Shown here one piece after another: positions 18,001 to 24,000 of a stretch of DNA of 61,566 nucleotides. Position numbers: made by a program. The DNA is taken from sequence record HG792104; one strand, 5' to 3'. Source of the stretch: Escherichia phage P13771. Each line of letters begins with the position of its first letter. Position 1 is the stretch's first letter.

Positions 18001-21000
18001 ATCGCATCTTTTGCGGTGTACGAAATATCATCCATTGAGAATGCGCCAGCTTGTACGCAGGAGAGTAACGGATATTCGTAAGCGGGGACACGAGTTAATG
18101 GCTCTTCAATTGCGAGCGCCATTTCTGCAATAGATTTTGCCAGGCTGGGACTGAAATCTCCGACCTTTACATTCAGTATCTTAGCAAGCTGTGCTGCGTG
18201 GCTGGCATTTATGGCGTTGATGCCAGCCATTAGCTGATTAACAGCGCTTTGGGTAACACCTAATTCATAGGCTAATGATTCCTGCGACAGGCCTAACTCT
18301 TTCTTTTTAGCGTTAAAAATACTTTTCAGACGCTTGGCGTCTTCCAGTTGCTCAGGGGTTAACGGTTTCTTTTTCATGTTCATACCATATCACCTTTGGT
18401 TATATGTAATGAAATATCTGCGGTGTTGACATTTTAATAACTGTGCGTAATGATATGGGCATTTTGAAGGAGTCAGTTATGGCGATGAAAAAAGAGACCC
18501 TGGCTGATTACGTATACAGGTTCGGCCAAAAGAAAGCCGCTAAGGACTTTGGCGTGGCGCAGAGTGCAATCAGTAAAGCGCTTCTCGTCGGACGAGAAAT
18601 ATACGTCAAAACCTTTGATGACGGCACAGTTGAGGCGGAAGAGGTTCGTCCGTTCCCTGCGTTCGTAAGAGGCGATGATTAATCCTGGACACACAGCCCA
18701 TCGGAGGTGTGAGTGAACAGGCAAATCAAAACGGTTATGCCCGAGCAGTACTGTGATGCTGATCGGGACTGGATACAGGAGCAATTGTTACAGCTAGACC
18801 CGACCACCCGGGTAAAAATTGCAGCAGAGTACGCGAGAGTGTACCAGGAAGAGTGGGACAAGGAGCCTGTATCGTTCAGGAAGGGCAACAGGGCAAGACG
18901 GAGCGCCAACACCCGGTTACGGGTGTATGTCCAGAAGTACGCGAGAGCCAGCCGTGGCTGGATGCTTTCGCCAGTAGCGGTACGGAAGTTTCCCCCGACA
19001 CCATGATGGCGGTTAGTTGCGCTAGAGATAATTTCAAGTGCAACTAATTTCCTGAAAGGAAGCGAGGAGGGGGTAAGGGGGTGGAGTCGTTGGTAAGGCC
19101 TGTATCCCTTGGCCTAGGCCAGAAGGCAGGTACATAGGTTAGGTAGATCACTGTATAAGCGCGCGATAGTTTCTGGTGAAATGATTATCGAGCTAACTAT
19201 TGAGTGATAAACTATGTCGGCAGCAACCAAATCGGCACTGATCCGTACACTGAGCACTGTACCACTGAGAACAGAGGAGCGTTACAGCTTTCTGGCTGAT
19301 GTTGTAACGATCCTTGAGTCACAGGGGATGCATGTGGCAAGCAATGTCACAGTAAGAATCGATGGCAGAAATTTCCGTGTTGATATTCTCGCAACAGCAA
19401 AAACTGGTGGGAGTGTGGCTATCGAGATCGATCGTAGCTCTCCGCGACCCCGCTCAGTCATGAAATTGCGTGAATTGGCACGTCGTGGCACTGAAGGCTT
19501 TGTGTTGCTTCGAATGCCAAAGAAACTGACCAGTTATAGCGATGCTGGGATCGATATCATCCCGGCGAATGGCAAGGGGGCGTCATGCTGAAAATCACCC
19601 CAAACTTTGCTCAGGAGCGCGGTTTAAACCAGCTGCGGCACCAGTGGAAACAGCATCGCACGTACCTGATGTATGCACCCACTGGCTCTGGCAAAACTGG
19701 TCTTGCAGCATTCGTCACTGCCGGAATGGTTGAACGTGGTATGCGGGTGATGTTTGTCTGTCCGTACACCATCCTGCTGAACCAGACAGCGGAACGTTTC
19801 ACCGAATACGGTTTGCCGTGGGAAGAAATCAGTTTTGTATGGCGTGATCACCCTAACTATGACCCGTCACGACTGATTCAGATTGCCAGTGCCGACACGC
19901 TGATCCGTCGTGAGTTTCCTGACAACATCGATCTGCTGATCATCGATGAAGCACACATGAAGCGTCGTGCGTTACTTGAGGTTATCCGGGACAAAGATAT
20001 CAGGGTTCTTGGGCTTTCCGGCACCCCGTTCGCAGCCTGGATGGGGAAGTACTACGAATGCCTGATCAAGCCTACAACGATTCGTGAACTTATTCAGCGT
20101 GGTGATCTGAGCGATTATGAGTTTTTTGCCCCCTCAATGCCTGATCTGGCTGGCGTAAAAACCAGTAACACCGTATTTGGACGGGATTACAACGAGGAAC
20201 AGCTCGCATCCATCATGGGGAGTTCGGATCTGGTTGGCGATATCGTCAGCAACTGGCTTGAGAATGGCGAGGATTTACCGACGATCTGCTTCTGCGTGAA
20301 TGTGGCTCATGCGAACTTTGTTACCCGTGAGTTTTTACAGTCTGGCATTGGCGCAGAGGTGATGACGGCAGATACCCCCCATGATGAACGACAGGACATC
20401 ATTCGCCGTTTTGAAGAGGGTGCGACCAAAATAATTGTCAACGTTGGCGTACTGGTTGCGGGATTTGACAGCGATGTTCGCTGCCTGATCTACGCCCGTC
20501 CGACCAAATCAGAAATCCGCTGGTTGCAGTGCATCGGGAGAGCGTTACGTACTGCGTCTGGTAAAAAACGCGCATTGATTTTCGACCATTCCGGCACGGT
20601 TCATCGGCTGGGCTTCCCCGAGGATATCGAGTATGACGAACTTCCGGGAAAAAATGACGGAATGAAAGCGTCTGCTGGCGGGAGTGAGGTTAAGGCTGAG
20701 AAACTTCCCAGGGAATGCCCCAAATGCCACTTCATGAAGCCTGCTGGCGTGCATATGTGTCCCAAATGTGGATTTCGTCCTCTTGGTGGTGATGACGTGG
20801 CGACAGATCGCGATCGTAAGCTTTCACGCGTCAACAAAGGGAAACGCGAATACACCCGTGAGGAAAAACAGCGTTGGTGGAGCGAGATCAAGGGGTATCA
20901 GAATTACCGCAACGCGACAGGTAAGCCACTGAGTGACGGATGGTGTGCTCATACCTACAAGGAGAAGTTCGGGGTTTGGCCTAAAGGCTTCAGTAATGCG

Positions 21001-24000
21001 CCGCTGCAAACCTCAGTTGAAGTGTACAACTTCATCAAGTCAAAGACCATTGCCTATGCCAAAGGGCGCAAGAAAGCCATGACAGGAGGCCAGCATGCGA
21101 ACTAGAGATGCAGCCGTGGGGCACTGGAGCCGGATTTTTGAATATTACGGCATGCCTCCTGTTACTGGTGTGAAACATTACAACGGACCCTGCCCGATAT
21201 GTGGTGCCAGAGGTAAATTTCGCTGTGATGATAAGGATGGTTCCGGTTCATGGATTTGCGTCTGTGGTCACGGGGACGGGATGAATCTGTTGCAACTTGC
21301 CACGGGTAAGCCCTGGGTGACGTTGTGTGATGAAATCGATCGGCTGATCGGAAATACCTGGAAGAGGGAGAAAGTCAGCCAGCCTGTAACAGAGATAAGC
21401 AGAAAGCGGGAGCTGGTCATAGATAAGTTTGCCGGACTCCCGTGTCTGCGGGGTACAACAGGTGAGGCGTACCTGCAGGGGAGGGGAATACTCCAGTTAC
21501 CGACCGAATCCGTGCGTTTTTGTGACCGTCAGATCGCCAGCGGGCGCGAATATCAGGCAATTTACGCCATTGCAACAGATGACAAAGGTTCTCTTTGCTA
21601 TCTGCATCGTACGTTGCTGGATGGTGATCGCAAGGCGAATGTAGAGGCGGCTAAAAAAATGACCGCGCTACAGGAGTTGCCTGGTTTGCAGCATGCCAAA
21701 TCGGTGGCAATACGCCTGTATCCGGTGTCGTCCACTCTGGGGATAGCCGAGGGTATCGAAACTGCGCTTTCATGCCGTCAAATCTTCCGCTGCAATGTGT
21801 GGTCAACAATGAACTCCGGTTTTATGGAGAAGTTCATTGCGCCACCTGGCGTTAATCACCTGATTATCTTTGCTGACAATGATGCGCACGGCGCAGGTCT
21901 GGCGGCTGCCTTTAAATGTGGGCATAAGAATCTCATGAGTTGCAATGACGTTGAGAAAGTCAGCATTCGCTGGCCTGACTTGCCGGATTTTAACGACATG
22001 CTCATTCAGGGGTGTGAAGCCCGTGAACATGTGTTGACGCGCAAATTCAAAGCGGAGGCTGCCTGATGGAAATAGAGATGATCAAGGCGGCTAATGGCGT
22101 ATTTGTACCGGCGTATGAGCGCGATTTACCCCGACTGGCAAAATTTAAAAACGGTGAGCTGTATACACTGGAAGCAAAACTTACCCGTAACCCATCTTTT
22201 CACCGGAAGATGTTCGCTTTTCTTAATTTCTGCTTTCAGTACTGGTGCGCTGAACATGCTGGATACGAATTCTCTGATGAAGCGACGCAGTTTGATGAGT
22301 TTCGTAAAAATCTGACAATTCTTGCCGGGTTCTATGATGTGGTCACAACCATAAGAGGCGAGGTGAGATATCGGGCAAAAAGCCTGAGTTACGCGAATAT
22401 GGATCAGGATGAGTTTGAACGTTGCTACAACGCAATGATTAATGCCGCGTTAAAACATGTGTTCGGGCGCTCAAACAATCCTGAACTGAATAACCGCCTG
22501 CTGTCGTTTTTCTGAGGTGATGATGAAGCAACGTAAACCAAAAAAATGCAAAGTGTGCGGCTCCTCGTTTGTGCCGTTCCGCTCATATCAGAAAGTTTGC
22601 TGTGGTCAGTGCGCACTGGAACTGGTCAGAAAAGAAAAGGCGATAGCTTCAGCAAAAGAGCAGGCAGACAAGCTGAAAGCGCGCAGGAGGGACTTACAGC
22701 CCCGCAGTTACTGGATTAAGCAGGCACAACAGGCTGTGAATGCTTATATCAGGGAGCGGGACCGTCATTTGCCGTGTGTTTCATGCGGGACGTTCGATTC
22801 AGCCCAGTGGGATGCAGGCCATTACCGTACAACAGCTGCGGCACCTCAGCTCAGATTTGATGAACGCAATATCCATAAGCAATGCGTGGTGTGTAACCAG
22901 TACAAAAGCGGAAATCTCGTTCCGTATCGTGTCGAACTGATTAACCGCATCGGGCAGGAAGCAGTAGACGAAATCGAATCAAACCATAGTCGCCACCGCT
23001 GGACTGTCGAAGAGTGCAAGGCGATCAAGGCAGAGTATCAACAGAAACTTAAAGACCTGCGAAACAGCAGAAGTGAGGCCGCATGACGTTCACCGTAAAA
23101 ACCATTCCTGACATGCTTGTTGAGGCATATGGAAATCAGACCGAAGTGGCCCGAATACTGAACTGCAATCGTGCCACAGTCAGAAAATACATTGGCGATA
23201 AAGAAGGGAAAAGACACGCTATCGTCAACGGTGTTCTTATGGTTCACCGCGGATGGGGTAAAGATACTGATGCGTGATATCCGGCAGGTTCTTGAGCGCT
23301 GGGGGGCATGGGCGGCAAATAACCATGAGGATGTTACATGGTCGCCCATTGCTGCCGGATTTAAGAGGCTGATCCCCGAAAAAGTAAAATCACGTCCACA
23401 GTGTTGTGACGATGACGCGATGATTATATGCGGGTGTATGGCTCGCCTTAACAGGAACAACAGCGATCTGCATGACTTGCTGGTTGATTATTACGTGTTG
23501 GGGGAGACGTTCATGGCGCTGGCACGGAAACATGGGTGCTCTGACACCTGTATAGGTAAACGCCTTCACAAAGCGGAGGGGATTGTTGAAGGCATGCTGA
23601 TGATGCTGGGAGTGAGGCTTGAGATGGATCGGTATGTTGAGCGTGAATTGCCGGGAGGGAGAACCTCTGTATTTTATCAGCGAAAAAATAGTTTACGATC
23701 GTAAAAATCTGCATATCATGATAAGAGTGGTTACATTGCCACGCTGCTTAACCCGCCGATGCGCGGGTTTTTTTGTACCCAGAATCCTGTGAGCTATACG
23801 GAAAGTACACAGAAAGGAAGGTGCGACCACAATTAATAACAAAATCTTAAAAATCGCACATGGCACTATTAGTTTTCTAAATATTGTGTATTTTTTGTAT
23901 TGCAGGATGACCCTGTAACGAAGTTTGCGTAACAGCATTTTGCTCTACGAGTTTGCCAGCCTCCCCCAGTGGCTGGCTTTTTTATGTCCGTAGCGTCAAA

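Follow-up and report, generated by a model that had tools for sequence, protein, structure and literature searches.

We found that the replication genes of an Eru1-type Shiga toxin (Stx) phage are inherited together with a small gene and a conserved piece of non-coding DNA. The phage is Escherichia phage P13771, of which we analysed a stretch of 61,566 nucleotides (nt) from sequence record HG792104, referred to below as the window. Downstream of cro, the window has a gene for a protein of 97 amino acids (aa), here called p97 (18713..19006, + strand), a non-coding gap of 207 bp (19007-19213), and the genes for a helicase, Eru1A, and a primase, Eru1B. The p97 gene, the gap, the helicase gene and the primase gene are a co-inherited unit across many gammaproteobacterial phages, and the unit holds together whatever immunity region lies to its left and whatever genes lie to its right. 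The gap carries an element of ~110 bp that is conserved in relatives. We favor, with a probability of roughly 55%, the joint interpretation that in the Eru1 operon the element is a candidate replication origin and p97 an accessory replication protein.

The region itself is the already published Eru1 replication unit, in the early-right operon of an Oslovirus-type Stx2a prophage (TL-2011c/P13374-type). From 18400 to 22100 the DNA is 100% identical to that of Escherichia phages TL-2011c (NC_019442/JQ011318; source O103:H25, Norway 2006) and P13374 (source O104:H4, Germany 2011), the annotations agree, and identity to ~97 other Stx-converting Oslovirus phages is 95-100%. Llarena et al. 2021 (PMC8044961) named the genes for the helicase, the Toprim protein and a DUF1367 protein eru1A, eru1B and eru1C, and the Eru typing was extended in a follow-up paper (PMC8951638). 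The window has these genes (DEAD/DEAH helicase, Toprim and DUF1367) downstream of cI/cro; its DNA is that of the Eru1 type of TL-2011c, 100% identical from cro to the primase gene, and the proteins of 506, 323 and 149 aa match. Neither the 97-aa open reading frame (ORF), nor a 125-aa ORF upstream of the helicase gene, nor an origin is discussed in the two Eru-type papers, and our search of the literature brought up no account of an Eru1 origin.

An earlier note on this DNA, made from the sequence alone, had proposed that a helicase-primase pair replaces the O and P genes of phage lambda. Pfam domains bear this out, identifying an SF2 helicase and a zinc-ribbon Toprim primase. The interval from cro to Q has neither of the lambda genes O and P, and nothing in it matches a Phage_rep_O or P family in Pfam. 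The coordinates that the note had given for the four ORFs (97, 125, 506 and 323 aa) are all correct.

p97 and its association with the helicase and primase genes

We searched bacterial genomes, one per species, with p97 as the sole query. This genome scan gave 35 loci, in genera that include Serratia, Yersinia, Erwinia, Citrobacter, Kosakonia, Atlantibacter, Proteus, Pantoea, Mixta and Gilliamella. At 34 of the 35 loci, genes for an Eru1A-type helicase (62-69% identity) and an Eru1B-type primase (50-59%) lie downstream on the same strand, and the distance from the p97 stop to the helicase start ranges from 256 to 1043 nt. The exception, in Citrobacter sp. Awk 4 (locus L012, 1300-1400), is a prophage remnant in which the helicase-primase block is deleted.

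The genes to the left of p97 differ from locus to locus. Only 6 of the genome-scan loci have a Cro of the lambda type, and more than one type of cI occurs. In the Oslovirus phage Lyz12581Vzw, cI and cro are unrelated to those of the window, and identity to the window restarts exactly at the Shine-Dalgarno (SD) sequence of p97, ...CGGAGGTGTGRGTGAAC. That is, there is a mosaic junction between cro and p97, exactly at the p97 ribosome-binding site. The GGAGG of this site (18703..18707, + strand, 5 nt before a GTG) is the left edge of the replication-side mosaic block in the window.

The order p97, gap, helicase, primase is also found in Salmonella phage Fels-1 and in Vibrio phages, where a trio of genes encodes a helicase, a primase and a p97 that are 59%, 52% and 39% identical to those of the window. 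One complete phage genome from Klebsiella, of 37 kb, has p97, the helicase and the primase as its only replication genes. In two further phages a small reading frame lies just downstream of a helicase gene. That of phiHSIC is p97-like, and the phiHSIC helicase gave no match to Eru1A. That of Serratia phage Eta is likened to the p97 homologue of Fels-1 by a note in its record only, and the window p97 gave no match in Eta by tblastn; the Eta helicase and Eru1A are distant relatives (24% identity, E=2.7e-18). Several 'plasmids' of 37-43 kb in PLSDB, from Klebsiella, Morganella and Enterobacter, carry a p97 homologue (NZ_CP076549.1, NZ_CP149982.1, NZ_LR890473.1, NZ_CP083847.1 and others). The first of these (locus L046) is a complete temperate phage genome, with an integrase, cI/cro, tail genes and the p97-helicase-primase module, and such records may be excised or episomal forms of phages.

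Based on these comparisons, p97 travels with the replication genes and not with the immunity region, and no other gene is linked as faithfully to those for the helicase and primase. The same is not true of eru1C. This gene was found in none of the 35 genome-scan loci, in none of three separately fetched contig loci, and in 16 of 76 viral loci; outside the Oslovirus-type phage group it is not co-inherited with eru1A and eru1B. Judged by sequence comparison, then, the third conserved member of Eru1 is p97 and not eru1C. The link between p97 and the helicase-primase pair appears to be undescribed in the searchable literature.

The start of p97 differs between annotations: GTG at 18713 gives 97 aa, and the ATG at 18737 that is used in GenBank gives 89 aa. 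GTG 18713 is better supported by the sequence, because GGAGG lies 5 nt upstream, because relatives have an SD-like sequence and a start codon, mostly 5-12 codons ahead of an invariant Met-Pro, and because identity to Lyz12581Vzw resumes at the SD sequence.

p97 has no match in Pfam or NCBIfam. It matches PHROG 852 (unknown function) from end to end (2.5e-44), and its family comprises 1011 clusters at E<=0.01, in which all the named members listed are called 'hypothetical'. An AlphaFold2 (AF2) model with a predicted local distance difference test (pLDDT) score of 75.6 has three helices, at residues 15-26, 30-50 and 54-80. We found no sequence match in the PDB, and Foldseek gave nothing significant in the PDB and only unnamed proteins in BFVD, the significant matches being 32-42% identical. 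The protein is bipartite, with an acidic N-terminal half and a C-terminal half that has 12 K+R against 1 D+E; its pI is 10.1. The invariant residues cluster in helix 3, in the motif N-[KR]-[AG]-R-x-x-A-N-T-R-L-R.

The conserved element in the gap

The earlier note had also suggested that a palindrome in the gap before the 125-aa ORF could be part of an origin or a regulatory site. The gap does carry a candidate cis-acting site, the conserved element of ~110 bp. An nhmmer profile built from 19 copies of the element from other bacteria of several genera, the window being excluded, has a single match in the window, at 19051..19159 on the + strand (E=2e-11). The left part of this match has a G-tract (19062..19086, on the + strand, which is the non-template strand) with the core GGGGGTAAGGGGG at 19069-19081. 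Its consensus is GGGGAAGAGGGAAAGGGGGGTAAGGGGGG, in which the G-runs are kept and the central triplet varies among relatives (TAA, AAA, TTT or TTA). The right part has a CATAGGTTAGGTAGATC motif, which contains GATC (19133..19149, + strand); from the start of the G-tract to its own start is 64 nt. It is the only copy of CATAGGTTAGGTAGATC in the window, where 0.07 matches are expected by chance.

Relatives have the same order of parts: the G-tract, a stretch of lower conservation that has an imperfect dyad, then CATAGGTTAGGTAGATC and an A-run, flanked by inverted repeats that are specific to each locus. The G-tract and CATAGGTTAGGTAGATC starts are 56-66 nt apart in relatives. We scored 38 entries, that is, the window and 37 loci found through p97; both motifs are present at this spacing in 24, and recognisable variants are present in most others. 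No other place in the 61.5-kb window has a G4Hunter score as high as that of the G-tract (2.00; 2.2-2.4 for the consensus of relatives), and its GC skew reaches +0.75.

On both sides of the element the gap has features of its own. To the left is an imperfect inverted repeat of 17+17 nt, TTAGTTGCGCTAGAGAT / ATTTCAAGTGCAACTAA (19013..19047), in the slot that locus-specific repeats such as GTACTA-N6-TAGTAC occupy in relatives, and a partly complementary copy of it lies at 19167-19185. To the right (19160..19213), GC content falls from 0.45 to 0.33, and 19170-19209 is 67.5% A+T.

The note had singled out a 12-bp perfect palindrome in the gap. The palindrome, TGGCCTAGGCCA, exists, but it lies at 19110..19121, 8 nt to the left of the place given, and it does not stand out from chance: the window has 16 perfect 12-bp palindromes, compared to 13.9 +/- 3.6 in shuffled sequences. 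It falls in the variable middle of the element, where several relatives have an imperfect dyad, TTGGAATAGGCCTTTTCCAA or TTGGAA-N8-TTCCAA. As judged by conservation, the hallmarks of the element are the G-tract and the TAGGTTAGGTAGATC motif, and the palindrome is not a significant feature.

The association also holds when the search is done in reverse. With only the DNA motif as the query, a scan of 2.9 million viral contigs gave 76. Where there was enough flanking sequence, p97 lay 66-191 nt upstream (71 of 71 contigs) and a helicase gene 118-483 nt downstream (60 of 60). The p97 proteins found in this way are as little as 43% identical to p97 of the window. The element occurs once per genome, between the p97 and helicase genes. 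It appears to be undescribed in the searchable literature.

We also looked for other kinds of signal in the gap. RNAalifold detected no conserved pairing that would make a consensus RNA structure of the element, and the gap has no match in Rfam. No sigma-70-like promoter and no intrinsic terminator was predicted on the + strand of the gap. There are no iterons in 18650-19650, only short repeats in two copies, and the A+T-rich stretch is ~40 nt long. In the gaps of Enterobacterales, these comparisons indicate that the constraint on the element acts on its DNA, or on a strand that is unpaired or G-rich, rather than on base-paired RNA.

Two other arrangements were seen in relatives. Many of them have one or two hairpins after the p97 stop with an identical 8-nt loop, TTAAAGGT, on stems of 5-7 bp that co-vary, for example TTCGGGT-TTAAAGGT-ACCCGAA and AACAGGC-TTAAAGGT-GCCTGTT (locus L014, about 6281-6330; Fels-1, locus L040, 5300-5330). 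From their sequence, these look like protein-binding hairpins of RNA or DNA. They are absent from the window. The break in the prophage remnant of Citrobacter sp. Awk 4 falls in the middle of such a hairpin and is followed by an apparent structural (late) phage gene. In a metagenome-assembled genome of Enterobacterales (locus L005, about 819-935), the usual element is replaced by a 15-bp palindrome, GGAACAGTTTGTTCC, in five copies that include variants of it. This array is iteron-like, adjoins a short G-tract and has the position of the element, and its sequence is consistent with the gap being an origin region.

Possible roles of the element and p97

Our preferred interpretation is the following. 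Transcription from pR would run through cro, p97, the 207-bp gap, the gene for the optional 125-aa protein (p125), eru1A and eru1B, and the element would act as the cis-acting replication origin of the Eru1 module. We suggest that it is an origin because it is the only conserved cis feature of a replication module that is self-contained, is present once per genome, and lies inside the replication block, as lambdoid origins do. At the origin, p97 would be a loader or an adaptor that helps the helicase or the primase to engage with nucleic acid, and not a reader of sequence. It would contact the helicase, the primase or a generic nucleic-acid structure, since its basic motif persists where the gap does not have the element. 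Transcription could assist initiation, a stable RNA-DNA hybrid being one way in which it might do so; this is conceivable because the purine-rich G-tract is on the non-template strand just downstream of pR.

One parallel is with the replication region of lambda. In both phages the replication block lies downstream of cro in the pR operon and has a cis site embedded in it. Transcriptional activation of the lambda origin is well known, and by analogy it is possible that the Eru1 module also depends on transcription from pR. Unlike the window, lambda has O and P, iterons, and a host helicase, DnaB, that is recruited by P, whereas the helicase of the window is an SF2 protein encoded by the phage; the lambda origin is inside the initiator gene, whereas the candidate origin of the window is intergenic.

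Origins that are primed from R-loops or G-rich sequences include those of ColE1 (RNA II) and phage T4, mitochondrial CSB II and the retroviral polypurine tract. What they would share with the Eru1 element is a purine-rich or G-rich non-template strand directly downstream of a strong early promoter, a likeness seen in silico only. As properties of the sequence, the window has the G4Hunter score of 2.00, the GC skew of +0.75 and a pR-like promoter (TTGACA-17-AATGAT, 18426..18454, + strand) predicted by a consensus scan. Unlike these origins, the Eru1 module encodes its own primase, which an origin primed by a transcript would not strictly need. An R-loop or G-quadruplex start at the G-tract is conceivable by analogy, and we offer it as speculation.

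The gene content of the operon also bears on lysogeny. Eru1 phages have no homologues of N, CII and CIII, and their lysogens are very unstable; lysogens of lambdoid Stx phages are reported to be much more stable (PMC8044961). A phage with no equivalents of CII, CIII or N would have no lambda-style route for establishing lysogeny, which fits the published instability.

Several points weigh against an origin and an accessory replication protein. The case for an origin is built from position, conservation and the exclusion of alternatives. The element has no iterons and no recognisable DnaA box, and with its short A+T-rich stretch it is unlike a classical theta origin. The p97 motif is kept where the gap does not have the enterobacterial element (loci L002, L005 and L034/35, Gilliamella, Vibrio); p97 is therefore probably not the reader of the element, and its role could be unrelated to an origin. 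When we compared the type of flanking inverted repeat with the phylogenies of p97, the helicase and the primase, the correlation was uninformative. Co-inheritance does not separate a role in replication from regulation of the same operon. In addition, an SF2 helicase that resembles RadD and XPB is atypical as a replicative helicase, and host DnaB may still be required.

It is also possible to take the G-rich sequence further and to suppose that the element is a new kind of origin, one that fires without a sequence-specific initiator or a loader of hexameric helicases. The polypurine G-tract, when transcribed from pR, would give rise to a stable hybrid or a G-quadruplex. p97 would recognise what has formed there and bring in both the SF2 helicase, which is RadD/XPB-like, and the primase, which is of the P4 type. 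We consider this bolder version quite unlikely as it stands. If true, p97 would found a new class of replication adaptors that is widespread in gammaproteobacterial phages (>1000 protein clusters).

Three other explanations for the conservation of p97 and the gap have to be weighed against the proposal of an origin. One is that p97 and the gap are a device for controlling transcription, in which p97 is an antiterminator or activator that binds RNA or DNA and stands in for N or CII, and the element is its site or a leader that sets the expression of the helicase and primase. Co-inheritance within an operon fits this equally well. The phage is one of those reported without N (PMC8044961), the element is in the position of nutR and tR1 of lambda, p97 has an arginine-rich helix, and the tandem hairpins with TTAAAGGT loops and co-varying stems come right after the p97 stop in relatives. 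A Vibrio relative has a terminator-like hairpin and a promoter-like site between p97 and the replication genes. Against this, the conserved core has no consensus RNA structure and no Rfam match, the hairpins are missing from the window, the predictions gave neither an intrinsic terminator from cro to the primase gene, which p97 could overcome, nor a sigma-70-like promoter in the gap, and in phiHSIC and Eta the order of genes differs, p97 being downstream of the helicase gene and not after cro. Nor does the region resemble a nut system. The earlier note had seen no nutR-like boxA after cro, and we found none with <=1 mismatch to CGCTCTTA or TGCTCTTTA on the + strand from 18400 to 19700. The spacer between cro and p97 is 30 bp, so there is no room for nutR plus tR1; the cro-cII interval of lambda is 118 bp, with rutA, nutR and rutB annotated and tR1 not annotated in the record. 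In lambda, tR1 lies between cro and cII. Because the window has just one copy of each conserved motif of the gap, it lacks a pair of sites like nutL and nutR, and the left operon has no partner site. Overall, a control device seems to us unlikely. A separate sequence on the other side of the immunity region has some likeness to an antitermination site: a perfect 13-nt rrn-type boxA, TGCTCTTTAACAA, is on the minus strand at 14893-14905, ~70-80 nt downstream of a predicted leftward promoter (TTTACA-17-TATATT, 15013 to 14985), with no counterpart on the pR side. By our estimate ~0.002 such 13-mers are expected in the window by chance. The phage is reported to have no N, and this boxA may mark a site for antitermination that is nutL-like or rrn-like.

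A narrower form of regulation is that p97 is a true functional analogue of CII, an activator for establishing lysogeny that has diverged past recognition. Like lambda CII it follows cro and has 97 aa, and the ORF is labelled 'CII transcriptional activator' in the 2025 GenBank records of phages phi346 and phi349 (PV189404.1, PV189405.1; in one record with this label, at locus L043, it is at 2638-2907). The paper PMC12502783 treats it as cII and reports no test of CII function. The resemblance ends with position and length. An hhalign comparison of a p97 profile (32 relatives) with lambda CII gave a probability of 0.17% (E=0.36, 7 aligned columns), and Pfam scans of the 32 relatives found neither Phage_CII nor a classical helix-turn-helix family, in agreement with the earlier note, which had recognised none of the helix-turn-helix sequence of CII in the protein. 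Neither of the two observations that the note had named as counting against it, a divergent CII emerging from a profile search or a nutR-type boxA, was made. No helix-turn-helix was discerned in the three-helix AF2 model, in which helices two and three are long (21 and 27 residues). p97 is inherited with the helicase and primase and not with cI/cro, from which the mosaic junction separates it, and in phiHSIC and Eta it is beside the helicase gene in regions that have no annotated cI/cro. Instability of Eru1 lysogens (PMC8044961) is expected if there is no CII function, although it is not proof. By these sequence comparisons p97 is not a homologue of CII, the label 'CII transcriptional activator' is unsupported, and a functional analogue of CII is very improbable.

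The gap might, instead, be a recombination-prone spacer into which mobile nuclease genes insert, with conservation that is due to target sites for homing or to recent ancestry. Different nucleases do occupy the slot upstream of the helicase gene, a PD-(D/E)xK type here, in 5 genome-scan loci and in Fels-1, and an HNH/NUMOD4 type in Yersinia, and the length of the gap varies from 256 to 1043 nt. However, the element with its fixed internal spacing is kept in loci that have no inserted gene, the inserted ORFs are to the right of the element and not within it, and the element is kept among genomes in which p97 is only 43-58% identical, where unconstrained DNA would be expected to have changed far more. 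A simple spacer is thus hard to credit.

Other genes of the region and implications

Eru1A (506 aa, 19585..21105, + strand) is an SF2 protein of the DEAH type with Pfam matches to ResIII (9.8e-16), Helicase_C (4.9e-12) and DEAD (2.6e-10); its translation has the Walker A sequence APTGSGKT, motif II IIDEAH, QCIGRALR, and a C-terminal zinc ribbon, CPKC...CPKC. The nearest solved structure is that of E. coli RadD (6jde, 5.7e-17), and matches to XPB and T4 UvsW are weaker. Against the NCBIfam family heli_RadD_YejH (NF053632) it scores 91.3 bits (4.5e-26), with an equivalog cutoff of 720. By sequence, Eru1A is a relative of RadD and not a RadD orthologue. RadD, archaeal XPB and T4 UvsW are its relatives, but they act in repair or recombination and not in origin-dependent replication.

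Eru1B (323 aa, 21095..22066, + strand) has a zinc ribbon followed by a Toprim domain (Pfam Zn_Ribbon_Prim 9.3e-15, DUF7146 2.9e-17, Toprim_3 1.2e-10), with the Toprim acidic motifs EGIE and DNDAHG in its translation. It belongs to PHROG 510, 'DNA primase' (7.6e-141), and no solved structure matches it by sequence. The order Zn_Ribbon_Prim then Toprim is that of primases of the P4 alpha and T7 gp4 type, and the Fels-1 homologue is annotated as similar to the P4 primase. In contrast to those proteins, Eru1B has no fused SF3 or SF4 helicase and no P4-type origin-binding domain; the module has a separate SF2 helicase.

The 125-aa ORF between the gap and eru1A (p125; 19214..19591, + strand) has a stop that overlaps the helicase start. 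Among its relatives, 11 of 23 match MTES_1575 and 3 of 23 match Mrr_cat, both of them families with a restriction-endonuclease fold, and a family profile matches 1y88 in the PDB (1.3e-4). An AF2 model (pLDDT 92.9) gave Bax1, AF1548, NucS/EndoMS and VRR_NUC as the best Foldseek matches. The invariant residues are E71, D73, R78, S81 and K84, and D57 is nearly so. Of the 35 genome-scan loci only 5 have a p125 homologue, as does Fels-1, and many loci have an empty slot. The nuclease in this slot, which overlaps the helicase start, differs by lineage: PD-(D/E)xK in some and, in Yersinia prophages, an HNH/NUMOD4 endonuclease (L003, 7618-8274). By fold and residues p125 is predicted to be a small PD-(D/E)xK nuclease that is dispensable in most relatives, and we read it as an accessory, possibly selfish, nuclease. 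Bax1 is the nuclease partner of archaeal XPB, and the p125 gene overlaps the gene for a helicase of the XPB/RadD kind; the two proteins might work as partners. The similarity of p125 to Bax1 is a generic match of the PD-(D/E)xK fold (TM-score about 0.5, 17% identity).

After the primase gene come genes for the DUF1367 protein, NinG, NinH and Q. The DUF1367 protein, Eru1C (149 aa, 22066..22515, + strand), is NinB/Orf-like; it matches PHROG 319, 'NinB/Orf recombination mediator' (3e-62), and eru1C is probably a recombination gene of the nin region rather than a replication gene.

At the other end of the operon, cro has a Pfam Cro domain of the lambda type (4.8e-34), and its start varies by record: ATG 18455 in P13374, ATG 18479 in phi349, and 18443 in the ORF list. 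In phi349, PHANOTATE predicts the 204-nt version. The pR-like promoter has a -10 hexamer whose last position is 18454, and there is an AAGGAG ahead of 18479. A Cro of 67 aa starting at ATG 18479 (18479..18682, + strand) is likelier, because starts at 18443 or 18455 would fall upstream of the transcript. cI is on the minus strand (17670-18383).

To the left of cI, in the position of lambda rexAB between cI and the leftward promoter, the minus strand encodes a restriction-modification pair (15156-17575), a restriction endonuclease and an N6-adenine methyltransferase, which is annotated as such in P13374 and Lyz12581Vzw. The early-left leader has three matches above the Rfam gathering score, all on the minus strand: sRNA-Xcc1 (13536-13619, 79.6 bits), C4 antisense RNA (14455-14542, 78.9 bits) and isrK (14567-14642, 61.7 bits). 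They are upstream of genes that are annotated as anti-repressors in P13374, which suggests a control module for antirepressor like ImmI of P1/P7 or isrK of Gifsy. On the right side of the window, three tRNA genes (24146-24394) are directly upstream of stx2A, as is usual in Stx2 phages, and stx2A and stx2B are at 24488-25728.

The helicase-primase module of Eru1 was known. To the published description our comparisons add p97 as a third component, a candidate origin of 110 bp, and a correction of the 'CII' label, as predictions from comparative genomics; they also add that p125 is predicted to be an optional nuclease and that eru1C is NinB-like and unlinked. In the searchable literature these additions appear to be undescribed. 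The phages that carry stx2a in the outbreak strains of 2011 (O104:H4) and 2006 (O103:H25) are of the Eru1 type. Because toxin output follows phage replication, a list of the parts of this replication unit is of practical value.

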